Shown here piece after piece: positions 6,214 to 50,141 of a DNA stretch of 55,135 nt (position 1 is the first letter of the stretch; the number at the start of each line of letters is the position of its first letter). This DNA comes from a virus, in the UHGV virus genome UHGV-0258472, one strand, 5' to 3'. The position numbers and the translations under genes were made by a program. The notes under the pieces are model-generated. The model was given only the letters and a program-made list of their open reading frames with translations. It was not told where the DNA came from and did no database searches.

Positions 6214-6403
6214 TATCGTCACCACGCTTGTAAATTTTGACAGGCTTAATAGGGATGGCTGGCAATTCGCCTTCATTTAACGCGCTTGCCATACCCAATA
6301 TTAAACGCGCTTCCGCACCAGTGACTTTCTTACACCATGCGCCGCCTGTTTTATCTTCGAACAAGATAACAGCAAACTGATCGTTTATTTCCAGCTTATC
6401 CAT
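6203..6403 (-). CDS. hypothetical protein (66 aa)
   Basis: ATG at 6403 overlaps stop of upstream gene (TAATG); SD ggggtga. Confidence 0.4.
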   Translation of the reverse strand: MDKLEINDQFAVILFEDKTGGAWCKKVTGAEARLILGMASALNEGELPAIPIKPVKIYKRGDDNEA

Positions 6404-7125
6404 TATTCACCCCGTGTCACTCGTTTGATCTCGCTTTCCGCGCGGGCCTCTTCTTTGAATAGCTCCGCTATGGCGTCTTCATAAAAAACCCGGTATTTTT
6501 TCCACCATGTTGATCGGCTCACCGGAAAAACAAGCTGATTAACCGCCTGCCGGACGAGATCTACCGGGAAACGCGAGTACCCGCGCCCGCCGCAATGCTG
6601 GCACGTTTTAAACACTGGCATTTCCGCCGCTTCGCTGGCTGTTTTATCCGGTACTTCGCCGCGCCCCTTGCATTGTTTACAATGATTGCGAACTTTCCCA
6701 TGCCCCTTGCATTTTTTGCAAAGGTGTTTTTCTCCGTAGTCGTCAAACGTAAATTTATATCCGCCGCACTCCATACAAGTTTTTTCCGTCGCGGCGCTTT
6801 GGCAATAATCCCGAAACGCGAAAACGGCAACAAGAATAATGAGATCATTGCGTTTGGCCTCGTCCAGTTCCATAACGTATTCATAATCTTTTGCCATAGC
6901 CCTTAAACGCTCTGTAAGCAAAACTACGGCCTTATGTTTTTCGGCTTGTGATAGTTCCATCTTCCCTAAAAAAGCGCTATAGCCAAGCTCTACGCGCGAT
7001 TGCGCCATTCCTGCGGCAGTTAGCGCATCAGTAGTATTAAGCGCATCCGGGGACGTTCCCCGGCTTTCATCTGACAAACGCGGTGATTTCGGGAAGTGGA
7101 ATTTAAGAATTGATTCCAGATTCAT
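6403..7125 (-). CDS. Q-like late antiterminator candidate with four CxxCxGxG (DnaJ-type) zinc-finger repeats
   Basis: ATG at 7125; translation shows CMECGGYK, CKKCKGHG, CKQCKGRG, CQHCGGRG; overall resemblance to lambdoid prophage Q proteins from memory; sits downstream of RusA/NinG as in lambdoid nin regions. Confidence 0.5.
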   Translation of the reverse strand: MNLESILKFHFPKSPRLSDESRGTSPDALNTTDALTAAGMAQSRVELGYSAFLGKMELSQAEKHKAVVLLTERLRAMAKDYEYVMELDEAKRNDLIILVAVFAFRDYCQSAATEKTCMECGGYKFTFDDYGEKHLCKKCKGHGKVRNHCKQCKGRGEVPDKTASEAAEMPVFKTCQHCGGRGYSRFPVDLVRQAVNQLVFPVSRSTWWKKYRVFYEDAIAELFKEEARAESEIKRVTRGE

Positions 7126-8505: not shown

Positions 8506-8664
8506 AATGCTCTCTCCTTTTCAGGTGATTTCTACGCATTTCAGCGCTGCCGGATTTTTAAAGAGCATTTTGTTTGCTTGAAGTATACAAAATGGATACG
8601 TGCTAACAAGGTGTAAAGCGCCATTATGTGACATTCATCACACAATGACGCCATTTTGTAAACT

Positions 8665-15925: not shown

Positions 15926-16406
15926 GATCTGATCTCCTTATATCCTTGATGATACTTAATAAAAAATCATCTTCGTTAATTGCCGCACTTCCAGCGGCTG
16001 ACCAGATTGTTAAAGAATGGCTTAACATCTTTCAACTAATCCCGCAATCATCGCCGTTTCCGGTGTGACCCTGCTCACTCCAAGCAAGCTGACTCGTCGC
16101 CTTGCGTGCGGTTTCGTGGGGGATGTGACGCTTTAGACACCCCATGCGCCTTGTTATCAGTGCCGCTTTCGGTCCCCCATCGGGGAGTTACTCCACGGTT
16201 GACAAGGTGTTAAGCCTGATTTTTAAAGTGCCAGGAAGGCGCTTTTTGTTTCCTGCCTCCTTCCTTTGATTCGCAATATACGCCCTGTGATATACCGAGT
16301 CAATCCATTTTGTATACTTTTTTAAAATATTTTATATATCATTGATATTTAAATTATAAAAACAGTTTTTTGGTTTACGTTTTGGTTATTTTACGGGCAA
16401 AGAAAG

Positions 16407-16422
16407 GCCGCCATCCGGCGGC
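16407..16422 (-). terminator. GC hairpin downstream of the repressor gene
   Basis: gccgccggatggcggc stem-loop on minus strand followed by ctttctttg. Confidence 0.4.
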
Positions 16423-16428
16423 TAATGT

Positions 16429-17076
16429 TTATGGCAGGTTTACGATCTTCGCGTCAACTACCACACCTATGATTTTAGATTCTGGATTCATAGGGATTGG
16501 CGGATACAGCGGATTGAGCGAACGTAAAAGCCTTTGACCTCCATCAATAACAAGCTGTTTAAACGTAGGTGTTTGCCCTTCCTCCAGTTGGGCTATAACC
16601 AGTTTTCCGTCAATAGCTGGCGCGTGCGGATCGACAAGTATCATCGTCCCCGCTGGTATACTCAATCCTTGCGGCGCGTTCATTGATTCGCCTTTAGCTA
16701 CCAGCCAATAACTATCATCTGAACAAATAACGCTAGTCGTAACGTGTGGTAATGTTGCTCGCCTTGTATCTTCCATATTGTTTACTGCGTCCTTCCAGTC
16801 AACAACCGGGTAACTACCTAAATCACGCGGCGGCGCTCCCGGTAATGTATTAGAAATAGAATCATCTATGACCATTCCATCGTGTGTAACAGTGAATTGC
16901 CGACGCCCAAGCGCCCGCATGATACGCGCAATATCTTCAAGATTCGGCTCGCGGCGACCGTTCAGCCAGTGTGACAGGCCGCCTTTAGTTATCCCCATGA
17001 GATCCGCGAGTGAATCCTGGCTCATGCCTTGCGCCCGCATGAGTTGCTTTGCTAAGTCGTACCATTTTGTTTTCAT
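16429..17076 (-). CDS. CI-type prophage repressor (XRE HTH plus LexA-like S24 peptidase domain)
   Basis: N-terminal HTH (SQDSLADLMGITKGGLSHWLNGRR) and C-terminal Ser-Lys autopeptidase region (GESM ... KQLVIDG); ATG at 17076. Confidence 0.85.
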   Translation of the reverse strand: MKTKWYDLAKQLMRAQGMSQDSLADLMGITKGGLSHWLNGRREPNLEDIARIMRALGRRQFTVTHDGMVIDDSISNTLPGAPPRDLGSYPVVDWKDAVNNMEDTRRATLPHVTTSVICSDDSYWLVAKGESMNAPQGLSIPAGTMILVDPHAPAIDGKLVIAQLEEGQTPTFKQLVIDGGQRLLRSLNPLYPPIPMNPESKIIGVVVDAKIVNLP

Positions 17077-29098: not shown

Positions 29099-29275
29099 CG
29101 CAATGACTCCATTATGTTAATTAACGGAATAATTCTACCATTTTGTGATCTATGTTACATTTTTGACTTATACAAAATGTATTTATTGATTTATATCAAT
29201 ATACGAAATGTGGTTTTGTCGGATATTTAAGCCACCGGATGAACCGGATGAGCTAACAAGAACGAGGATTAAAAA

Positions 29276-29524
29276 ATGAAAAACATGTTCAAAGTGGTTT
29301 TATTCGCTGCGGCTGTTGCTCTTACTGGTTGCGCTGTTGACAAAGAAGCTGCATTGCATAACCTGCCAAATAGCGGAGTGATTCCACAAGAAATCGTCTA
29401 TGATGCTAATGGTCATCTTGTATATGACACTGAAAAACTGCCATATACTGGTCAATGGTGTCATGAACTCGATCACAACATGCGCCGCATCGGTAGCCCG
29501 TCGAATTGTGTAGCTAACTACTAA
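29276..29524 (+). CDS. lipoprotein moron (signal peptide plus lipobox LTGC); candidate superinfection-exclusion lipoprotein
   Basis: MKNMFKVVLFAAAVALTGC signal/lipobox; antisense to flanking tail genes; own terminator; ATG 29276 with SD gagga. Confidence 0.6.
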   Translation: MKNMFKVVLFAAAVALTGCAVDKEAALHNLPNSGVIPQEIVYDANGHLVYDTEKLPYTGQWCHELDHNMRRIGSPSNCVANY

Positions 29525-36344: not shown

Positions 36345-36473
36345 TTTCTCACCTTTCGCTTTTTTGTGATCTGCATCACGCTAAATCATACCGAAATGGT
36401 TGATCGCGCTTTTTACAATATGTATATTTTACTCAAACGAAGTGGTAGTTAACAAAATGGCGCGGGGTGATTT

Positions 36474-36638
36474 ATGGTTGCTAAATTGTGGAAGCTAACA
36501 CTATTCATGAACGATGGAAGCGAAAGACTGATTGCACTATATGACGACGAAGGCGAGGCGCTAATAGACGCGCTTGAGCTTTCTGAGGATAGCCGCGTTT
36601 TGGGATACAGAATTAAACCTGTAAAACGTGAGGTTTAA
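36474..36638 (+). CDS. hypothetical small protein (54 aa), moron cassette B
   Basis: ATG 36474 with SD ggggtga; antisense to tail genes. Confidence 0.4.
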   Translation: MVAKLWKLTLFMNDGSERLIALYDDEGEALIDALELSEDSRVLGYRIKPVKREV

Positions 36639-36642
36639 CAAA

Positions 36643-37044
36643 ATGCAAAAGTATCGTCTCGATGTATGGATGGCAGGAAGTAATGACTGGGAAGGTTACG
36701 GATTGCATGATAGTTACGAAATGGCGGTAGAGGAAGGGGAAAAACTTGTTCGCTTCTTCGGTCGCGCCAGGGAATTCAGAATAACTCCTGTACAAATAGC
36801 CGAGAAGGTGGAAGAGATGAACCCGAAAGATATTAACTTTAACGTCAATGTTGATTTTGCTGATTCTATGGATCAGTCTTGCCCTGGTGAAATACACGCA
36901 AAAGGTTTCCCGGCAGACGATCCAGAAGCAAAACGCGAATACGAAAAGCGGCAAAAGATTTCTGTATCGATAACCTGGGCGCGTTCGATAAATAAGGTGG
37001 CAGTATGGCGCGGCGTAATCACGGTGATTATGTGTACACGTTGA
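36643..37044 (+). CDS. hypothetical protein (133 aa), moron cassette B
   Basis: ATG 36643 with SD gtgaggt. Confidence 0.45.
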   Translation: MQKYRLDVWMAGSNDWEGYGLHDSYEMAVEEGEKLVRFFGRAREFRITPVQIAEKVEEMNPKDINFNVNVDFADSMDQSCPGEIHAKGFPADDPEAKREYEKRQKISVSITWARSINKVAVWRGVITVIMCTR

Positions 37045-37253
37045 AACAGGCCGCCCGCCTTATCGGTTATCATGAACACGAATTTATTGATTTGCTGATT
37101 GAGCGCGGGATACTGTACCAGGTCTGTTTAACACTGTACCCAAAAGCGAAATACCTACAGGAAAAGTTATTCATCATCATGACGGATGAAAACCAGGTTA
37201 ATCACTCATTCGTCACTGATAAGGGGTTAACATACTTAAGGGAAACATTATGA
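37005..37253 (+). CDS. small HTH DNA-binding protein, moron cassette B
   Basis: ATG 37005 with SD aaggtgg; LKQAARLIGYHEHEFIDLLIERGIL HTH-like segment. Confidence 0.45.
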   Translation: MARRNHGDYVYTLKQAARLIGYHEHEFIDLLIERGILYQVCLTLYPKAKYLQEKLFIIMTDENQVNHSFVTDKGLTYLRETL

Positions 37254-37551: not shown

Positions 37552-37905
37552 TCATCTGACGACTTGCTCAAATGTTGCGTTTAGCGTGCATACCGGGCCG
37601 TCTTTCGTCATGCTCCACTTTCTACATACAAAAAGCCTTTGCACCCCGTCAGTGGATGGAGTCCAGTAAAACGCCTCGACCGCGCAACGTGCTCTTAAAA
37701 ATGCGTCAACCTGTAGCGCTACGTTTCCGTCGTCACCGCATCCGGCGCTCGTACCCTTAAAGACCAGCGTATAGCTATCAAGTAAAGGGTTAATCCCTTT
37801 TGTCTGCCTCTGTTCATACCCATCACCCAGTTTAATGACAGACACGTTAGGCTCACTGTTTACGCTGTAGCTTCTTTGTGGTGTCCATCGGAACACTTCA
37901 GGCAT
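37552..37905 (-). CDS. minor tail protein (lambda M-like)
   Basis: 117 aa; N-terminal EVFRWTP motif typical of phage minor tail protein M; ATG 37905. Confidence 0.65.
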   Translation of the reverse strand: MPEVFRWTPQRSYSVNSEPNVSVIKLGDGYEQRQTKGINPLLDSYTLVFKGTSAGCGDDGNVALQVDAFLRARCAVEAFYWTPSTDGVQRLFVCRKWSMTKDGPVCTLNATFEQVVR

Positions 37906-38072
37906 AAAACCCCCTATAAGTTACATTTTGTATATACCTTTACGCGATTCTACGCGAAAAATGAGATCTTCATCACAATGATTATAGCCAGTTTTCAAAA
38001 TGGCTTCACTTTGGAAATCACATATTGTATACAGAAAGCAAATAAGAAAGACGTTGCACAAAGGGGGATGTT

Positions 38073-38327
38073 ATGAAACTGGTAGCGATTGACAAAAACC
38101 TGAAAGCACAGAAAAACGCACAGGACCGGATCATCAAGAAAGGCAAGGAACTTCTTAAAGCATTTTTGAAGAAAGAAGCCCACCCCAAAAAGTTACGCGA
38201 CGGATACGGTTTTAAATTTGACATCAACCCAGATTGGCGGCTGTTCAGTGAAGACCTCAAGGTATGGTTAATCATCGATCATCTTGAATACAACAGGCAC
38301 TGCGGAGTCAAAGGGGCGCATAAGTGA
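38073..38327 (+). CDS. hypothetical basic protein (84 aa), moron cassette A
   Basis: ATG 38073 with SD agggggat. Confidence 0.45.
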   Translation: MKLVAIDKNLKAQKNAQDRIIKKGKELLKAFLKKEAHPKKLRDGYGFKFDINPDWRLFSEDLKVWLIIDHLEYNRHCGVKGAHK

Positions 38328-38335
38328 GGCGTGAT

Positions 38336-38428
38336 ATGGAAGACGATAAATTCACCTGGCGTGAGATCTGGAACATCTGGCAAGTGATGTTTGCTCGCAG
38401 CTACATAGCAAGAAACGGAAGATTGTAA
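38336..38428 (+). CDS. micro-ORF (30 aa), moron cassette A
   Basis: ATG 38336 with SD gtgagg. Confidence 0.3.
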   Translation: MEDDKFTWREIWNIWQVMFARSYIARNGRL

Positions 38429-38481
38429 TTTGCGGAGGAAAATAAAATGAAAACCCGGCAAATAAAAGCAATGTAAAACGT

Positions 38482-38616
38482 ATGGCCTGGATCGTAAAAT
38501 GGATGGATAGTAAAGGAGATACATATACTGAACCATTTTTCAAACATACTGACGCAGTATTTGCAAGAAGTGTAAGAGGCGGGAAAATTGAAAGAGGATA
38601 TACAAGTTTTGAGTAA
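38482..38616 (+). CDS. micro-ORF (44 aa), moron cassette A
   Basis: ATG 38482; no clear SD. Confidence 0.25.
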   Translation: MAWIVKWMDSKGDTYTEPFFKHTDAVFARSVRGGKIERGYTSFE

Positions 38617-38654
38617 ATTTATTTATGTGATTAATAGCACAGTGGAGATTGATA

Positions 38655-38834
38655 ATGATTATTAACGAAACGGAAGAATGCAGACGTATTACTCTTAGCA
38701 TTGAGTATGACGAAAGATTATGGCTTGAGTGCGACTGCGAATTGATCGTAATAGATAAAAAGCAAGCCGCAGAACTAATAAAGGCATTACAGCTTTATGT
38801 AAACGGCGAATTTAAAAATGATGAAATTGAATAA
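38655..38834 (+). CDS. hypothetical small acidic protein (59 aa), moron cassette A
   Basis: ATG 38655 with SD agtggaga (ORF-track first codon is TTG). Confidence 0.4.
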   Translation: MIINETEECRRITLSIEYDERLWLECDCELIVIDKKQAAELIKALQLYVNGEFKNDEIE

Positions 38835-38841
38835 AAGATAA

Positions 38842-38860
38842 CCCCGGCACAATGCCGGGG
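38842..38860. terminator. bidirectional rho-independent terminator between cassette A and tape measure gene
   Basis: ccccggcacaatgccgggg hairpin with T-runs on both strands. Confidence 0.55.
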
Positions 38861-38866
38861 TTATGT

Positions 38867-41206
38867 TTATTTGCGACGAGGTTGTAATATTCCGCCTGGT
38901 CTTTGTGATTCCCTTGTTATCATTTTCATTGCTACACGTTCCATTGTCTGCTCAAGTCTGCGGCTGTCATCGTCGCTAAATCCGTTTGTGGTCTGAATGT
39001 TGATATTGACAGGCATACTAATGCCGCCGCCACCGCCAATATCACGCCCAGGAATAATTCTGCCATTCTCGCCAGGGATCATATATTGATTTCCGTTAGA
39101 TGTCTGGAATAGCTCCGGCCTGTTGTGTTCCCCTACACGGTACATATTGCCACCAATGACGCTACCACCATTAAAGCGTCCTCCGCCAAAAATTGACGTC
39201 GCCAGCGACATGATCGCAGAAAGCGCCGCCGCACCAGCCGCCGCCCAGCTACCACCAGTTGACGCAGCCGTTGCCGCCGCTGCCGGGGCCGCCGCCGCAG
39301 CAATCTGGCCTTGTGCCGCTACCGCGCCAGCCGTGGTACTTGCCTGCGTTGCCTTGCTTTGTGTCTCCATCATGATTTGATCTGCTATCCAGTCAGCGGC
39401 TATATCTGAAAGTCTGCTACCAATATTGCCGAGGATATTGCTACCTAAGTTAGCAAAAACATCGCTCAATGATTGAGTACCGTTTAACAGACCAACAAGC
39501 GCATTGCTCATACCACCTTTAAGGCCATTAACGCAATCACCGATCAGGCCGTTAGTGTCGCTTTGCGCCTGCCATTGCTCCCACTTCAGATCGCGGATCT
39601 GCTGCTCATAGGCTAACAATTCCTGTTTCTGTTGCGCTTCGGTAGCCCCCAGGTCGATAAGCATTTGCTTACGAATTGCCCATTCATTCTGTACCTGCTG
39701 AATAGGGTCAACCTCGCCTTTTAGCTGGTCCATCGGGCTAACTATTTGCGACCATTTATCACGCAATTCATCTACAGGGATTTGCGCTAATTCTTCCTTC
39801 AGTTCCTTGCCTATCCCTTTTTGCGCGGCGCGGTACTCAAGGATGGTGATTTTACCCTGGGCGAATGCAGCATCAATGGCCTTGCCGTTCTCTAATGCTT
39901 TGCGCATGGCGGCGGCGTCTTTGTTGTACTGGTCAGAAACGCTTATGCCTTTGTCACCAAGCCGATCAGCTTCTGATTTCTTCTCTTTTTTCGGTTTTTT
40001 CGGCTTATCAACTGGCTGATCGAATCCGGTGATCTTGCCGTCGTTAGCCTCACCCTGTTTCTGCATGAACTCATCATAAGCGGCAGTCGCGTTTTTAATA
40101 TCGTTTGCAAACGTCATAACCTTGCCGACGGTAGGGCCGAATTTTTTCTCGTTGTTGCTGTTTAGCTCTTCCTTGCGTTTATCGACAATTTCCTTCATCC
40201 ATTTGTAGCCATCCATTAGCGCTTTTATTGGCGTTACCATTCTAATGATCTCTTCCGCCACCTCACCAGCCTTAACAGCCACGTCGTCAAACATGTCGAT
40301 GAATTCGCTACCAGCCGTTTTGAGTGTATCGAAGCATGTTTTAGCAAATTTAGCGCCCTCGCCAAGTCCTTTAACGCCCTTCGTGATTAAGTCGATAGCT
40401 GATACCACGCCGTCTGATACGCCGAAAAGATCGTCCAACTGCTCAACAAGGCCCATGATCTCTACTTTAAGCTCATTGATAGCCATACCGGATGTGCGCG
40501 GCAACTGAGCAAACTTATCGTTTGTTTCCTGCGTAGCCGCCTGGATCGCGTTGACCATCCTTTCAGCCGTGATCTTGCCGTCCAGCATTTCTGCGCGGAA
40601 CTGGCCCATTGATAATCCCATCTGGCGGGCCATTGTCTGTACGATGGTCGGGGTGTTCTCAAGAAGGCTGTTGAATTCTTCAGCACGGAGTACGCCGCCG
40701 TCGATAGCCTGGCGGAACTGGCGCATTGAGTTAGACATCTGTTCCGCTGATGCACCACCTAACGCTCCCATTTTCTGAATAGTGCCAACAAGGTTAAGTA
40801 ACTGGCCTTCAGTAGCGGATGTGTTCTTTAATGAGATGGCAAGTCCTTGCCATAATTCGCCAGTATCTTTCAGGCTCTGGCCTGTTTCTTTCGATATTGC
40901 TTTCAGGCCGTCGAAAACCCGTCCGGCGGACTCCGCATCGCCAGTAAGCATTTTGATTTTTACGCGTAGCATTTTTGCTTGTTCCGCCATATCCATAAAT
41001 TGGCGCACTGCTTCCGCAGCAAGTAGCAGATGGATGACCCTGGTCAGTGCTTTGATGGATGTTTTCAGGGTGTTTACCTGGCGGTCAGCCTGTTTTGCGC
41101 CGCGCTCTATACGGTCAAAGGCCTGGTCTGCCTGTCGTTGTGCAACGAGAAGTTGACCAGTTTTTGCATCAACCTCGTAATAAATTGTACCTACACTGGT
41201 AGCCAT
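38867..41206 (-). CDS. tail tape measure protein
   Basis: 779 aa, Ala/Gly/Gln-rich with long helical segments; position upstream of M/L/K/I/J; ATG 41206 with SD gaggt. Confidence 0.8.
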   Translation of the reverse strand: MATSVGTIYYEVDAKTGQLLVAQRQADQAFDRIERGAKQADRQVNTLKTSIKALTRVIHLLLAAEAVRQFMDMAEQAKMLRVKIKMLTGDAESAGRVFDGLKAISKETGQSLKDTGELWQGLAISLKNTSATEGQLLNLVGTIQKMGALGGASAEQMSNSMRQFRQAIDGGVLRAEEFNSLLENTPTIVQTMARQMGLSMGQFRAEMLDGKITAERMVNAIQAATQETNDKFAQLPRTSGMAINELKVEIMGLVEQLDDLFGVSDGVVSAIDLITKGVKGLGEGAKFAKTCFDTLKTAGSEFIDMFDDVAVKAGEVAEEIIRMVTPIKALMDGYKWMKEIVDKRKEELNSNNEKKFGPTVGKVMTFANDIKNATAAYDEFMQKQGEANDGKITGFDQPVDKPKKPKKEKKSEADRLGDKGISVSDQYNKDAAAMRKALENGKAIDAAFAQGKITILEYRAAQKGIGKELKEELAQIPVDELRDKWSQIVSPMDQLKGEVDPIQQVQNEWAIRKQMLIDLGATEAQQKQELLAYEQQIRDLKWEQWQAQSDTNGLIGDCVNGLKGGMSNALVGLLNGTQSLSDVFANLGSNILGNIGSRLSDIAADWIADQIMMETQSKATQASTTAGAVAAQGQIAAAAAPAAAATAASTGGSWAAAGAAALSAIMSLATSIFGGGRFNGGSVIGGNMYRVGEHNRPELFQTSNGNQYMIPGENGRIIPGRDIGGGGGISMPVNINIQTTNGFSDDDSRRLEQTMERVAMKMITRESQRPGGILQPRRK

Positions 41207-41455
41207 AATTTAACCTCATACAAAATGTGATCTATGTCTCTATTTTATACAAAATGGCTTCATTTCAACGAATACATTTTGTATAAAGAAGGTGAAGGAT
41301 GAGAGAGATAAAAGAAGGTCGAAGGATATAAAGGATTAAGACTTGAAGCACAGCTAACCGATGGAACGAGGGAGGCGAAAACCCCTAAAACTAAGGAAAC
41401 AGCAAAGGGATTTAAAAGGCCGGATTAACCGGAGGAAGCAAAAGAGGATAAGAAA

Positions 41456-41545
41456 ATGAAAAACGTAAACTACCGCCCCAACGAACATGAACGCTATGCG
41501 GACTTCATCGAAGAAATGTTAAAAGCACTTAAAAACAAAAATTAA
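41456..41545 (+). CDS. micro-ORF (29 aa), moron cassette C
   Basis: ATG 41456 with SD agaggata. Confidence 0.35.
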   Translation: MKNVNYRPNEHERYADFIEEMLKALKNKN

Positions 41546-41556
41546 GCGAGGCGCAC

Positions 41557-41664
41557 ATGGATACCATCAAAAGCATCATAGAAGTGTATATATCAGCATG
41601 GGTGGCTTTTAATGTAATGGCTGTATTCGTGCTGGCATTAACAATAAAAGGCGAATGTAAATAA
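41557..41664 (+). CDS. small hydrophobic peptide (35 aa), moron cassette C
   Basis: ATG 41557 with SD gaggcg; single TM-like segment. Confidence 0.35.
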   Translation: MDTIKSIIEVYISAWVAFNVMAVFVLALTIKGECK

Positions 41665-41675
41665 GGCGGTGCATC

Positions 41676-41978
41676 ATGGAACTAGTAATTCTCTTTATTG
41701 GATTTGTGGTAACTATGGTTGTAGCCGAGAAAAAACATCTTAATATGTTCCTTGCATTTATTGGCGCTCTGATTTGTTGGCCTGCTGTATTGATTTACGC
41801 CCTATGCGTCAACAAGAAGATGTTTAAACACTACATAGATGCTTTAACTTTCGTCAACATGGAGTTTTCTGACGCAACTGACGTACAGAAAGCACAGATC
41901 GCGACTTATCTTTACGATAACGTGTACACAGTCCATGATTTAGAAGAGGCAAGATGGCGCTTTGCAGCATACAAATAA
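41676..41978 (+). CDS. small membrane protein (100 aa, two TM segments), moron cassette C
   Basis: ATG 41676 with SD aaggcggtg; hydrophobic N-terminal half. Confidence 0.5.
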   Translation: MELVILFIGFVVTMVVAEKKHLNMFLAFIGALICWPAVLIYALCVNKKMFKHYIDALTFVNMEFSDATDVQKAQIATYLYDNVYTVHDLEEARWRFAAYK

Positions 41979-41986
41979 AAATAAAG

Positions 41987-42004
41987 GCCCGGTTAATTCC
42001 GGGC
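41987..42004 (+). terminator. rho-independent terminator after cassette C
   Basis: gcccggttaattccgggc hairpin followed by tttttcttg. Confidence 0.55.
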
Positions 42005-42685
42005 TTTTTCTTGCTTGCGATTTTTCATTCTTTCCAGTGCCTTTTTAGCGGCCTCCATTTGCTCATCATAAGCACGTTTATTTATGTGAACATTTGGCTT
42101 GCTTCTCTCGTTTCTTTCGTCTGGCGGCGTTTTAGCGCGCACAGCGGCCCTGTATCCGGTCATTGTCATATTCCACGCTTCTGATTCAGATAATCCCAGG
42201 TGAGCTACGGCAGAATAAACGAATTCAAGGACGTCAAATGTCGGCTTATATTCACCTTCCCGGATCTCCCCAGCGTATTCTTCCGGTCCATCACCGATTA
42301 AACCGTGGTACATGCAATGCTGCGCAAGCGTGATGACGTCATCAGTAGGCATCAATCCGGGTTTTAGTCGTAACTTGCCAGAAGGAGTAAACCAGCATTC
42401 GCCAAGCAATGGCCCTGTTTCCTCTTCTGAGCAACATTTCAGGATGCGCATAGATGTTTGCACTATCTCACCATAACACCGCGCCAGAATGCGATTGCGT
42501 AGGTCTGGATCTGCTGGCAATCGTGATGGATATTTGCCACCGTGGATGGTTGCGAAGTATTCTACCAGTTCTCTGTCACTGCCGATCTTAGCCATTGCAG
42601 CGAAGCAGGGATTAAACACATACCGCCTGCCATCGACTACAGCCGCAAATTGTCCAGTTCGAACATGAATCATAGCTTTCACCAT
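41993..42685 (-). CDS. putative tail assembly chaperone (by position between major tail and tape measure genes)
   Basis: Position only; start may be ATG 42673. Confidence 0.35.
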   Translation of the reverse strand: MVKAMIHVRTGQFAAVVDGRRYVFNPCFAAMAKIGSDRELVEYFATIHGGKYPSRLPADPDLRNRILARCYGEIVQTSMRILKCCSEEETGPLLGECWFTPSGKLRLKPGLMPTDDVITLAQHCMYHGLIGDGPEEYAGEIREGEYKPTFDVLEFVYSAVAHLGLSESEAWNMTMTGYRAAVRAKTPPDERNERSKPNVHINKRAYDEQMEAAKKALERMKNRKQEKARN

Positions 42686-42693
42686 AAAAGAAA

Positions 42694-42708
42694 GGGGCCA
42701 ACGGCCCC
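42694..42708 (-). terminator. hairpin terminator after major tail protein gene
   Basis: ggggccgttggcccc followed by tttctttt on minus strand. Confidence 0.45.
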
Positions 42709-42726
42709 GATTATTAATATTGATTA

Positions 42727-43203
42727 TTATGCTGCTGGGATGTCGCCAACCGTCACCTTACCAGCGCTTGAGCACTCAATAGACCAGGTGGAGACATCAT
42801 CGTTCGGATCTTCCTCTTTGAAGGAGGTGCAAAGGAATGGACCTTCAGTTACATCAACCGGGGAAACAAGTTTAAGCCACACATAAGGCTGAGATCCGGT
42901 TGTTTCACCAGGGTTAATAACGTGACGCTTCAGTTCTTTCTGATTATGGATTGCTTCAGTACGGGATACACCGTCACCTGAGAAAGAAATAGATTTGTAA
43001 GTGACAAGTGATTCTTTGGTGTAGTCTGCTGATTTATCAGCGGTGGCGTCTGCGGTTTCCCATTCGACGGAAAGCGTTTTGCCGCGCATCATGCCTAACG
43101 CTTTATAGGTTTCATCTGACGGTTTCGCGTTAGGACAAGCGATAGCGTAGAATACAGCCACGTCGCGGCCCAAAAACGCGCCCTTTTCGCAAGTCTGAGA
43201 CAT
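42727..43203 (-). CDS. major tail (tube) protein
   Basis: 158 aa; strong SD aagaggt; followed by terminator; position upstream of chaperone/TMP. Confidence 0.55.
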   Translation of the reverse strand: MSQTCEKGAFLGRDVAVFYAIACPNAKPSDETYKALGMMRGKTLSVEWETADATADKSADYTKESLVTYKSISFSGDGVSRTEAIHNQKELKRHVINPGETTGSQPYVWLKLVSPVDVTEGPFLCTSFKEEDPNDDVSTWSIECSSAGKVTVGDIPAA

Positions 43204-47823: not shown

Positions 47824-48748
47824 ATTTAGCGTGCGCAACCTTATAGTTTTCTTGCGCCCGATCTAATATTCGTTTGTTTAATATGTTACCGTCTTCGTCA
47901 ACCAATACGGTAATCGTGCTACATTTGCAGTTAATTGAATTTGGGGATCTGCTCCACCATTCGCGCTGCTCATCTATGGTGTATGTTTTCCCGTGCCGCT
48001 GCGCGTGCGATAGCCTGGTAGTCGGTGACAATGCCGAAATGTGCATTTGCATAGTGCGCAGATTAAGCTCTTCTGTCGCCGCTTCTGCCTCATCCATACG
48101 TGCTGTGCGTAACGCTGTGCATATTTCAGTTCTGGCAATACGTTTGCACCTGTATAGCGGCAATTGCGTTTCCTGCTGCAATGTGCGCGCTATTTCCAGT
48201 GGATTTAAACCACGGGCCATACCTTCGGTTAATCGCCGGGCCATATCCTTCTTGATCTGTGCTGTTAGCCCGCGCATTTCCTCAAATACACGGGTACGAA
48301 CAAGGGCAAGACGCGTGCGGTAAGTCGTACTTGATAGCACGGCGGATACATCAGGATAAGCGCTTGAGTAAGTAACAGACTGGTTGGCGAGGTTGGCATA
48401 TTCCTGTGAAGTGCCGCGCTGATATGCCACCTTCACGTATTCCTGCCAAAACCAAAAACTTTCCGGGTCGGTTAGCTCGAATATTTCATCAATCATGTCG
48501 CTGGCGTCTTCCAGCAAATCATGCAATTCGTCAATGTAGATCTGGAAAGTGTATTTCTTATTAACAGCCAGGCTATATTGTATTCTGTCCAGTATGGCGA
48601 TATATGGATCGGCTATTTTCTTCAGGCAGGATTTGAAACGCTTAATAGCTCCCGACCGTAACTTACCTGTCATGGTCGGGTCTTCGGTGTTAGATGGCAT
48701 TATCGCGGCGGGAGGTATTCGCCTGATTATTTTCTTCACCTTCATCAT
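47804..48748 (-). CDS. Mu F-like minor head (head morphogenesis) protein
   Basis: Size and position immediately after portal gene; resemblance to Mu F / SPP1 gp7 family from memory. Confidence 0.65.
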   Translation of the reverse strand: MMKVKKIIRRIPPAAIMPSNTEDPTMTGKLRSGAIKRFKSCLKKIADPYIAILDRIQYSLAVNKKYTFQIYIDELHDLLEDASDMIDEIFELTDPESFWFWQEYVKVAYQRGTSQEYANLANQSVTYSSAYPDVSAVLSSTTYRTRLALVRTRVFEEMRGLTAQIKKDMARRLTEGMARGLNPLEIARTLQQETQLPLYRCKRIARTEICTALRTARMDEAEAATEELNLRTMQMHISALSPTTRLSHAQRHGKTYTIDEQREWWSRSPNSINCKCSTITVLVDEDGNILNKRILDRAQENYKVAHAKYGEDWE

Positions 48749-50063
48749 CGTTTTCCTCGTCTTCCAGTTCTATTTCACTAGCTGGGCCATCGTATCCGGC
48801 AGCTTCGCGGATCTCGTCACCGCTAAATATTTCCTCACCAGTAGCAAGACAAGCCTGATTGATTTGCGCCATTTTGTGTGCCGCTTCCAGTAGCTCGGCT
48901 TTTGTCATGGCGTTAAGGTCATCCCATAAAACTGATACATCGACTGGCATACTGATAAGGCGGAGATCTGCCATCTTGCGGAATAGTTCCTCAAGCTCGC
49001 CTCCTATTTCCTCGCGGCGGGTCATACAGCGATTATTGAAGTAGCGGAGGTCTTCAGTTGATGCGCGTTCACCCTGCTGATTCCCAACCAGGATACGCGT
49101 CGGGATGTCGATACCAGCGGCGGCAGTTTGCAGGTTTACGTCATAGGTTGCAGATGGATCGGCTACGGCAGTTACCAGCGGGCTAACACTTGCCCCTTGT
49201 AATGCCATCATCACATCATTACCCCTGTTCATTTCTGCTGCTGCCTCGTTGAATTTCTCGCGTAGCTCTGTAACGTCGCAATCGTATGTTGCAGCCAGGG
49301 AACGGAAATCAATCTCTTTATCGAACGAGATAGCCAGTTGACGAGCGGCATTTTTCAGGAATGACTCACCGCTACCGCCTTCCACTTTCTCCAGCGAAAC
49401 GAAAGCGTTATAGGACGGCTCAAGGAAAGCGATAGCATCATCAGAATAATCACCGAAGATGAATATACGGTCTGGATGAATCTTTCTTGCTATGGTCTTA
49501 CTGTTGATGCGCTCCTTGTATTCCCACCATGTAGGCAGGCCATAGTTTTCTTTATCCGGGTTTTCTTCGAAGTCCTTCGGCGTAAGAGCACCAGCCCACG
49601 CAGGGGTAAATTTGGCAATGCCTACGCCTTTTGTCACTGGCTGATCCCACGGCTGGTTATCTCTGACATGAATTAACAGACCAGCATAACGACCAATGAG
49701 GCGGCGGCGATCGCATTCAGCTATGACGCGCCAGAAACGATTATCAAATTGCTTTTTAATTTCTCTTTCCCACGGCGTTTCCGTTTCTGCTTTCTCGTCT
49801 TCCGTACCTTCGATCAGCGTTGGCCTGGTGCGCCAGCACGTTGTAATGATCTTCTCAATAGCACCGTGAGCAATACCACCGCGACGATACAGCTTGTATA
49901 AATCGTCATAGGTGATTTCTTCTTTGAATCCGTATTCACTCCACGCAGCATCACGTTTTGCATCAATACCCATTGAGAATGGGTTAACGGCTGCATAGCG
50001 GGCGAAGGCCGCCTGGCGTTGTGACAAGGCAGCATTAACCGCCAATTCTAAATTGGATGGCAT
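48690..50063 (-). CDS. portal protein
   Basis: ~457 aa, acidic C-terminus, immediately downstream of terminase large subunit; start set at ATG 50063 (SD aggag). Confidence 0.65.
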   Translation of the reverse strand: MPSNLELAVNAALSQRQAAFARYAAVNPFSMGIDAKRDAAWSEYGFKEEITYDDLYKLYRRGGIAHGAIEKIITTCWRTRPTLIEGTEDEKAETETPWEREIKKQFDNRFWRVIAECDRRRLIGRYAGLLIHVRDNQPWDQPVTKGVGIAKFTPAWAGALTPKDFEENPDKENYGLPTWWEYKERINSKTIARKIHPDRIFIFGDYSDDAIAFLEPSYNAFVSLEKVEGGSGESFLKNAARQLAISFDKEIDFRSLAATYDCDVTELREKFNEAAAEMNRGNDVMMALQGASVSPLVTAVADPSATYDVNLQTAAAGIDIPTRILVGNQQGERASTEDLRYFNNRCMTRREEIGGELEELFRKMADLRLISMPVDVSVLWDDLNAMTKAELLEAAHKMAQINQACLATGEEIFSGDEIREAAGYDGPASEIELEDEENDDEGEENNQANTSRRDNAI

Positions 50064-50141
50064 AATGTTTACTCCTGAATACATGTTTACGCGTTGCTAC
50101 GCGAAAAATAGAAAAATTCGTGAGGGATTGTGAGGCAGATT

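Follow-up and report, generated by a model that had tools for sequence, protein, structure and literature searches.

An antisense cassette with predicted membrane-protein cargo beside the tape measure gene of a coliphage genome: a likely moron and candidate exclusion module

Introduction

What is a cassette of three small antisense genes doing inside the tail module of a coliphage, at the junction between a putative tail assembly chaperone gene and the tape measure gene? The question arises from UHGV virus genome UHGV-0258472, a stretch of 55,135 nucleotides that is called the window here. In it, a DUF6246 gene is separated from the tape measure gene by 786 bp, and this insert holds three plus-strand open reading frames (ORFs) whose products we name p29, p35, and p100. 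An earlier note on this DNA had proposed a membrane-acting exclusion or conversion module, inserted at a normally invariant site. Our comparisons indicate that the cassette is very probably a moron, and that an exclusion or conversion role, argued by analogy with known systems, is the most reasonable reading of what it does.

The window can be placed by its relatives. Its right half is 85–92% identical to the temperate siphophages mEp021, mEp010, mEp013, mEp044, mEp515, mEp554, and MagusPhagus. These phages belong to the “mEpimmI” group, which is reported to be as common as lambdoid phages in one human-gut coliphage collection (PMC11893012). A prophage of Escherichia coli UMNK88 is 99.8% identical over a 1-kb stretch around the cassette; it diverges from the window beyond the tail genes, and its annotation is not usable for the window's left half. 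Judged by these similarities, the genome that hosts the cassette is an mEpimmI-type E. coli prophage.

Results

Cassette genes and their products

The three ORFs lie on the plus strand at 41456–41545 (p29), 41557–41664 (p35), and 41676–41978 (p100), exactly where the earlier note had put them, and each is preceded by a Shine-Dalgarno-like sequence. Codon-position counts and pairwise pN/pS were obtained from five to six relatives for each ORF. Variable sites at codon positions 1, 2, and 3 numbered 21, 10, and 43 in p100, 10, 4, and 17 in p35, and 2, 2, and 12 in p29. Values of pN/pS were 0.15–0.29 for p100, 0–0.41 among diverged pairs for p35, and 0–0.16 for p29. As the variable sites are mainly third codon positions, we take p29, p35, and p100 to be genes and not chance frames, and the substitution pattern indicates that all three are under purifying selection. 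The third-position bias, together with low pN/pS in every ORF, bears out the claim that these antisense genes are real and translated.

The same data speak to the alternative that the small ORFs are chance frames in an untranslated spacer or a regulatory RNA. RefSeq annotates only the 100-aa gene in UMNK88 (WP_000424346.1, hypothetical), leaving the p29 and p35 ORFs unannotated there, and spurious opposite-strand ORFs have been called in some phage records. This alternative is already contradicted by the substitution pattern, however, and the reading frames are kept in many independent loci. An Rfam search of 37800–42800 at a permissive threshold gave chance-level hits only, with no match to the cassette, and no significant RNA fold was found. 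We consider chance frames very improbable.

Of the three products, p29 is a 29-aa hydrophilic small protein with a conserved, amphipathic C-terminal helix; its gene is the first of the cassette wherever it is present, and among phage records it is restricted to mEpimmI phages. The earlier note had seen transmembrane-like segments in two of the three products, and hydropathy agrees, with one hydrophobic segment in p35 and two in p100. The 35-aa p35 appears to be a single-pass membrane peptide (best 15-residue window at residues 16–30, Kyte-Doolittle 2.5). In p100 (100 aa), two N-terminal hydrophobic helices at residues ~2–17 and ~24–45 are followed by a 55-aa helical C-terminal domain, in line with an all-helical AlphaFold2 model, and the motif WP.VLIYALCVNK is invariant. 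Neither p35 nor p100 has a signal peptide or lipobox, and both are predicted to be integral inner-membrane proteins. The p100 family is tiny, with 8 clusters at 90% identity and 3 cluster representatives among 1.84 billion, and homologues of p35 and p100 were not detected beyond this phage lineage. A holin or spanin identity for p35 and p100 was ruled out, as the holin, lysozyme, and Rz-like genes are located elsewhere than in the cassette.

Occupancy of the junction

The minus-strand gene order around the insert is tail terminator, tail tube (42727–43203), DUF6246 (41993–42685), cassette region, and tape measure (38867–41206). The tape measure gene, the left neighbor, encodes 779 aa and matches PF20155 (TMP_3, E 1.2e-49) and phrog_1538, tail length tape measure protein (E 7e-149). 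The right neighbor is a 230-aa ORF (226 aa as called in RefSeq) that matches PF19759 (DUF6246, E 3e-53). In the distant contigs L020, L021, and L022, the stop codon of DUF6246 directly adjoins or overlaps the start of the tape measure gene. This contiguity means that extra DNA has been added at the junction in the window, and so a conserved junction is interrupted, as had been claimed.

The further claim that the site is normally invariant is not supported. Within the mEpimmI lineage this position is never vacant and carries at least ten different cargo proteins, and in a more distant Citrobacter relative three or four accessory genes on the same strand fill the junction. In HK97, the chaperone–tape measure junction holds gene 15, the element for which the word “moron” was coined (PMC3594210). 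With HK97, the Citrobacter relative, and the mEpimmI loci all occupied, the junction is a recurrent insertion point.

A moron is an accessory transcription unit in the sense of Juhala et al. 2000, as summarized in PMC3594210. The cassette consists of extra DNA between otherwise adjacent genes, it has its own terminator, and its base composition differs from that of its surroundings, with a GC fraction of 0.38–0.40 vs 0.45–0.53 in the flanks and a reversed strand skew. We are highly confident that it is a moron-type accessory cassette.

The earlier note had called the site a chaperone/tape-measure junction. The tape measure half of this description agrees with the PF20155 match; the chaperone label for DUF6246 is plausible, from gene position and sub-threshold profile hits. 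DUF6246 follows the tail tube gene and precedes the tape measure gene, and in distant phages it is directly upstream of the tape measure gene whenever the insert is absent. Its N-terminus gave sub-threshold hits to Phage_TAC_11 (best E 0.008, 8 of 20 members) and its C-terminus to Phage_TAC_6 (best E 0.1, 9 of 20 members), weak hits whose order fits a fused G-T arrangement. No frameshift partner was found when the chaperone-like gene was checked for one, and it has no in-frame X_XXY_YYZ heptamer. Alternative-frame extensions past the DUF6246 stop reach ≤56 codons and cannot be conserved, because they run through variable cargo. DUF6246 is thus a plausible but unproven tail assembly chaperone by these sequence signs. 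Distant DUF6246 phages have one more gene, of 119 aa, between tail tube and DUF6246 (L020 4638–4997, L021 4641–5000), and it could encode a G-like chaperone partner missing from mEpimmI phages.

Cargo of the slot

We compared the interval between DUF6246 and the tape measure gene, here called the slot, in 15 phages and prophages and seven metagenomic contigs. An antisense cassette was present in the slot at all 22 related loci. A common frame of regulatory block, leader, p29 ORF, cargo, and terminator was seen at every locus except E21845 and M1/5, both of which are without p29, and a p29-type ORF of 27–29 aa was present in 13 of the 15 aligned loci. The pair of p35 and p100 was found at 11 loci (the window, mEp044, mEp554, strain 127, E21845, and six metagenomic contigs), with p35 always upstream of p100 in the slot and the pair sometimes joined by a 60-aa protein or a duplicated p35. 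The alternative cargo comprised four signal-peptide proteins of 116, 119, 137/138, and 165 aa, unrelated to one another, and a VasI/TagO-like lipoprotein (PF11319, E 2e-16) whose partner is either a second lipoprotein, of 124 aa, or a protein of 106 aa. The majority of the cargo is exported or inserted into a membrane; no export signal was seen in the 60-aa protein or in the 106-aa one.

The slot of contig L031 contains just promoter, leader, p29, and terminator, with no cargo. In the same contig, the sole distant p100 homologue, P0129 (122 aa), lies antisense in the junction between the tube and DUF6246 genes, where it is preceded by a second copy of the promoter module and accompanied by neither p29 nor p35. 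From this arrangement it follows that the promoter module is portable, that p29 is the slot's constant content, and that p100 can exist without p35.

Several details of the cargo deserve mention in their own right. The 35-aa gene is perfectly duplicated in tandem in two metagenomic relatives (L026 2263–2489 and L027 407–633), and the extra 60-aa gene of the same two contigs encodes a C-terminus, ANEFARLRKAMLNK, that resembles the p29 C-terminus ADFIEEMLKALKNK. Unrelated secreted cargoes (L002–L015) begin with a near-identical signal peptide, MKRL.K.A......L/FAFNANA, or ..LVGC in lipoproteins, which suggests that cargo exchange may recombine within the signal-peptide coding region.

The range of cargo bears on a reading in which the cassette serves lysogenic conversion unrelated to exclusion. 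Its membrane proteins would then modulate the host envelope, for instance by acting on a transporter or sensor kinase, or by altering stress tolerance or the resistance to colicins or type VI effectors, to the benefit of the lysogen's fitness in the gut. The VasI/TagO-like lipoprotein and the several periplasmic orphans among the alternative cargo are unlike known exclusion proteins, the hosts include porcine enterotoxigenic E. coli, Shiga toxin-producing E. coli, and commensal strains, and small E. coli membrane proteins often regulate larger membrane proteins, as is generally known and also noted in PMC3594210. Against these points, the cassette proteins match no virulence or fitness family, the regulatory module is held in common with the validated exclusion gene lpp (see below), and the precedent at this junction is an exclusion protein. 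We regard conversion of this kind as rather unlikely.

The association of p35 with p100 raises a different alternative, in which p35 is a membrane-depolarizing peptide that is restrained by p100 or by antisense late transcription and, once freed on infection, kills the cell in the manner of abortive infection. In size and hydrophobicity, p35 is like type I toxins of the Hok/TisB/Ibs type; it is strictly linked to p100 and sometimes duplicated, and a neighboring antisense cassette begins with a protein that has a ParE-like toxin domain. Yet no toxin family was matched in Pfam, NCBIfam, or PADLOC, and Rfam gave no antitoxin RNA in 37800–42800. The existence of P0129 without p35 also counts against the scheme, as does the tandem duplication, since a toxin would not be expected to duplicate without extra antidote. 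A toxin-like cassette seems distinctly unlikely to us.

Regulatory sequences of the cassette

The region upstream of p29 carries a promoter-like module made up of an inverted pair of CATTTTGTATA motifs and a CRP-like TGTGATCT box. In the window as a whole, the CATTTTGTATA motif occurs at 18 sites with ≤1 mismatch vs 2.0 expected, a count reached by 0 of 100 shuffles. Three copies had been reported in the slot (41217–41285), and all three are at their claimed sites; conservation in the 15-locus alignment extends to only two of them. The copy that is variable or absent, CATTTTGTATG (41217–41227, minus strand, one mismatch), lies beside the ribosome-binding site of the tape measure gene. The distal conserved copy (41246–41256, minus strand; TATACAAAATG on the plus strand) is the left arm of the inverted pair, A/T-rich and UP-element-like, and is invariant in all 15 loci. 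The proximal copy (41275–41285, plus strand) sits inside a putative sigma-70-like promoter at 41259–41287 on the plus strand, composed of a −35 element TTCATT (41259–41264), a 17-bp spacer, and a −10 element TATAAA (41282–41287). This copy ends the spacer and supplies the first four bases of the −10 element.

A CRP-like box, TGTGATCTATGTCTCT, lies at 41226–41241 (no strand assigned); its left half, AAATGTGATCT, matches the CRP consensus half-site, and its right half is weak. The regulatory block of the slot reads TGTGATC, six variable bases, TCTATTTTATACAAAATG, 18 bases, then CATTTTGTATAAAG; it is largely conserved, with TGTGATC invariant in 15 of 15 aligned loci. From these elements we infer promoter activity and CRP input for the cassette. 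We did not adopt a reading of the CATTTTGTATA motif as a repressor operator or L5-like “stoperator”, since its copies face different ways relative to genes and the immunity region by the repressor gene (16429–17076) carries different palindromes, of the CTTG/CAAG type. The motif fits best as part of the promoter spacer and −10 region.

Downstream of the promoter lies a 92-nt purine-rich leader segment (41300–41391, plus strand) that is missing from 14 of the 15 aligned loci and present in the metagenomic relative L031. Its RNA fold is no better than that of shuffles (z +0.43), and Tandem Repeats Finder returned nothing on the leader. It is followed by a leader hairpin, CCGGATTAACCGG, and the Shine-Dalgarno sequence AGAGGA (41420–41448, plus strand), a module that occurs in 3 copies in the window vs 0.02 expected. 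At the far end of the cassette is a bidirectional intrinsic terminator (41983–42008, both strands), whose 3′ arm and T-tract are the last DUF6246 codons. The terminator proposed earlier for the cassette end is thus borne out, and the DUF6246 stop codon (41993–41995) sits in its loop. It folds equally well on the two strands (−16.5 and −16.8 kcal/mol, z −3.2 and −3.4), and the hairpin is kept in 15 of 15 loci. A terminator inside the tail operon would be tolerable because the window encodes a Q-type antiterminator at 6403–7125 (PF03589, E 2e-29).

The leader links the cassette to a known exclusion gene. The window carries an lpp orthologue at 29276–29524 on the plus strand, antisense between J and the side-fibre gene, which encodes an 82-aa lipoprotein 94% identical to Lpp010 (mEp010_116). 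Its upstream region (29144–29251) contains the leader hairpin module at 29235–29251, and the 12-mer TGTGATCTATGT of the slot's CRP-like box recurs there at 29144. Lpp010 has been shown experimentally to exclude mEp010, mEp044, mEp554, and lambda (PMC11893012). Possession of the same hairpin and TGTGATCTATGT box is the best indirect sign that the slot cassette belongs to the same prophage-expressed program. The possibility that the slot gene is itself the published Lpp exclusion gene was ruled out, since mEp010_116 lies between J and the side fibre, the position of the orthologue at 29276–29524. The lpp upstream region also holds a perfect FNR-type palindrome, TTGATTTATATCAA, at 29186–29199.

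The regulatory layout and the position of the cassette could also be taken to indicate a helper of the lytic cycle, whose membrane proteins are expressed during infection and aid the phage's own DNA injection, tape measure insertion, or lysis timing. The cassette adjoins the tape measure gene, its promoter module also faces the tape measure start, such that the region could be a divergent regulatory node, and the CATTTTGTATA motif is spread across early and late regions. However, unrelated proteins freely replace the cargo among phages with ~85–92% identical tail genes, which rules the cargo out as an essential partner of the tape measure protein. Lying antisense, the cassette would collide with late transcription, and the genes for lysis are found elsewhere. 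We judge a lytic-cycle role to be improbable.

Further features of the window

Two more antisense cassettes, both on the plus strand, are embedded in the tail genes. The second cassette (38073–38834) lies between the tape measure and minor tail genes, and it is the first of its genes that encodes the ParE-like toxin domain (PF24732, E 6e-11). Its promoter-like region (37962–38033, plus strand) includes a module paralogous to that of the slot, TTCACT, 17 bp, and TATACA at 38005–38033, with a CRP-like box TGAGATCTTCATCACA, and the cassette ends in a bidirectional terminator with a 12-bp stem (38838–38864, both strands). The third cassette (36474–37253) is flanked by minor tail genes, and one of its products has a KilAC/ANT antirepressor domain (PF03374). 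Its upstream region (36365–36428, plus strand) has a near-consensus box, TGTGATCTGCATCACG, and a better promoter, TTGATC, 17 bp, and TATATT, at 36400–36428.

The arrangement of −35 element, 17-bp spacer, and −10 element is the same before all three cassettes. CRP recognizes the consensus TGTGA-N6-TCACA, and its class I positions are −61.5 and −71.5. Boxes of this form with ≤1 mismatch number 8 in the window vs 1.4 expected, and the boxes of the second and third cassettes have one mismatch each. The box centers lie 48.5 (slot), 58.5 (second), and 50.5 bp (third) before the −10 element, which places them at approximately −60.5, −70.5, and −62.5 relative to the predicted starts. Control by CRP could, on these spacings, be a possible common property of several antisense morons of one tail operon.

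Related sequence elements occur outside the tail genes. Just 3′ of the repressor gene, an exact CATTTTGTATACT motif is followed by ~100 nt of very AT-rich sequence and then a hairpin at the repressor 3′ end (16306–16430, plus strand), a layout that may correspond to a small RNA unit, antisense or regulatory. At 8584–8662, upstream of a NinG-like gene, an inverted motif pair, GAAGTATACAAAATG and CATTTTGTAAACTTC, surrounds a perfect TGTGACATTCATCACA palindrome (8627–8642), so that the same regulatory vocabulary appears in the early/nin region. In the head module, beside the minor head protein gene, a minus-strand gene at 48690–50084 encodes ~460 aa and has the RefSeq name “anti-CBASS protein Acb1 family protein” in the UMNK88 prophage; given its position, the product may be a portal protein or a fusion.

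Discussion

We propose the following model for the cassette. The sigma-70-like promoter within the inverted CATTTTGTATA pair, with the CRP-like TGTGATCT box ~61 bp before the predicted start, would drive a transcript that runs through the leader, the p29 ORF, and then the cargo, here the putative single-pass p35 and two-pass p100 inner-membrane proteins. Transcription would stop at the bidirectional terminator contained in the 3′ end of the DUF6246 gene. In a lysogen, expression of the cassette would probably not depend on the late operon, which is repressed there, and p35 and p100 would insert into the inner membrane, where they would most likely hinder the entry of DNA from superinfecting phages. 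Such a block would complement exclusion at the level of the outer membrane by the Lpp/Cor-type lipoprotein, whose gene has the same leader module. In the lytic cycle, late transcription under Q antitermination would pass the terminator, cross the cassette in antisense, and so arrive at the tape measure gene.

The role that we favor, tentatively and at no better than even odds, is to block the DNA of superinfecting phages at the inner membrane. The case is drawn from the junction precedent, the predominance of envelope proteins among the cargo, the regulatory DNA shared with lpp, and what is known of Imm- and SieA-type proteins, and it is in this way, by analogy, that we infer both expression in lysogens and a function in exclusion. 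Several observations weigh against it. None of p29, p35, and p100 has a family match in Pfam, PHROG, PADLOC, or NCBIfam; a Foldseek search of BFVD with the AlphaFold2 model of p100 gave nothing at E ≤ 0.001; and BLASTP of HK97 gp15 against p100 gave zero alignments at E ≤ 100. As there is no family, fold, or gp15 match, the argument for exclusion is one of analogy and shared regulatory DNA only. The topology of p100 is ambiguous, with positive charges flanking the loop between its helices and also helix 2 on its C-terminal side. On the regulatory side, a strict consensus scan called none of the promoters of the antisense cassettes, that of the slot being passed over because its −10 element is without the final T, and the slot's CRP-like box has two mismatches and a single good half-site, outside the 8 enriched boxes. 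Finally, exclusion in this phage group has been attributed to Lpp, with no mention of the slot (PMC11893012).

A bolder version of the model, which we think unlikely in its full form, treats promoter, leader, and p29 as a dedicated expression dock, dependent on CRP and tuned by catabolites, that is kept even when empty and into which envelope cargo is swapped. Here, p29 would be a functional small protein, either regulator or effector, and p35 and p100 would form a two-component inner-membrane block of tape-measure-dependent DNA entry, co-regulated with Lpp and with the CRP-controlled receptor LamB. If the CRP link were true, prophage-encoded exclusion would be tied to nutritional state and receptor expression.

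Whatever the role of each cargo, the slot amounts to a small natural “expression dock” in which many orphan envelope proteins are sampled, and it offers a list of candidates for functions in exclusion or envelope remodeling. The accessory genes of mEpimmI phages are essentially unstudied except for Lpp, and the list includes 29-aa and 35-aa proteins overlooked by RefSeq annotation.

Comparison with known systems

The closest precedent is gene 15 of HK97, which sits at this junction in its own genome, with the G/GT chaperone gene on one side and the tape measure gene on the other (PMC3594210; NC_002167 annotation). Like the products considered here, the YebO-like gp15 is a small inner-membrane protein, its gene has its own terminator, and it is missing from related phages; the prophage expresses it, and it keeps the genomes of other phages from entering (PMC3594210). 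The two elements differ in that gene 15 is a single 62-aa gene on the strand of the tail genes, whereas the window cassette has three genes on the opposite strand with the p29 ORF first. There is no sequence similarity between gp15 and p100, and none of p29, p35, and p100 matches the YebO Pfam family.

Lpp010 and Cor-type proteins resemble the cassette in another way. The lpp gene too is a moron that runs antisense in this phage's tail module, with the same leader hairpin, TGTGATCTATGT box, and TATACAAAATG motif, and its product is targeted to the envelope, as p35 and p100 are predicted to be. Unlike them, Lpp is a lipoprotein (lipobox LTGC) encoded in a different slot, and it excluded the LamB-using phages tested (PMC11893012).

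Outer-membrane morons form a broader class to which the cassette can be compared, along with the injection blockers of other phages. The bor/lom-type morons of lambda are accessory genes in or next to the late genes, with their own promoter and terminator, some of them antisense, that encode envelope proteins expressed from the prophage. They differ from the cassette as outer-membrane proteins or lipoproteins with roles in serum resistance or adhesion, at other positions and from other families. T4 Imm is a small phage inner-membrane protein with one to few helices that stops incoming DNA at the cytoplasmic membrane, and it is the product of an early gene of a lytic phage, not of a prophage moron. 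P22 SieA (PMC10883804) is also an inner-membrane injection blocker; Lom, for its part, is mentioned in PMC3594210. Both Imm and SieA are small phage-encoded inner-membrane proteins, as p35 and p100 appear to be, but no relation of sequence or fold to the cassette products was detected. The Tab protein of JBD26 is likewise a small prophage moron protein from the late operon, and it targets the tape measure protein of invading phages (PMC10884400); its gene lies between the terminase genes, it blocks tail assembly and not entry, and it is unrelated in sequence.

Set beside these systems, the cassette adds one more example to a known class of elements, at a classic insertion site, and does not amount to a new kind of system. 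What goes beyond the ordinary is the p29 “dock” that persists without cargo, the possible control by CRP of several antisense morons in a single tail operon, and the terminator that is built into the DUF6246 stop codon.

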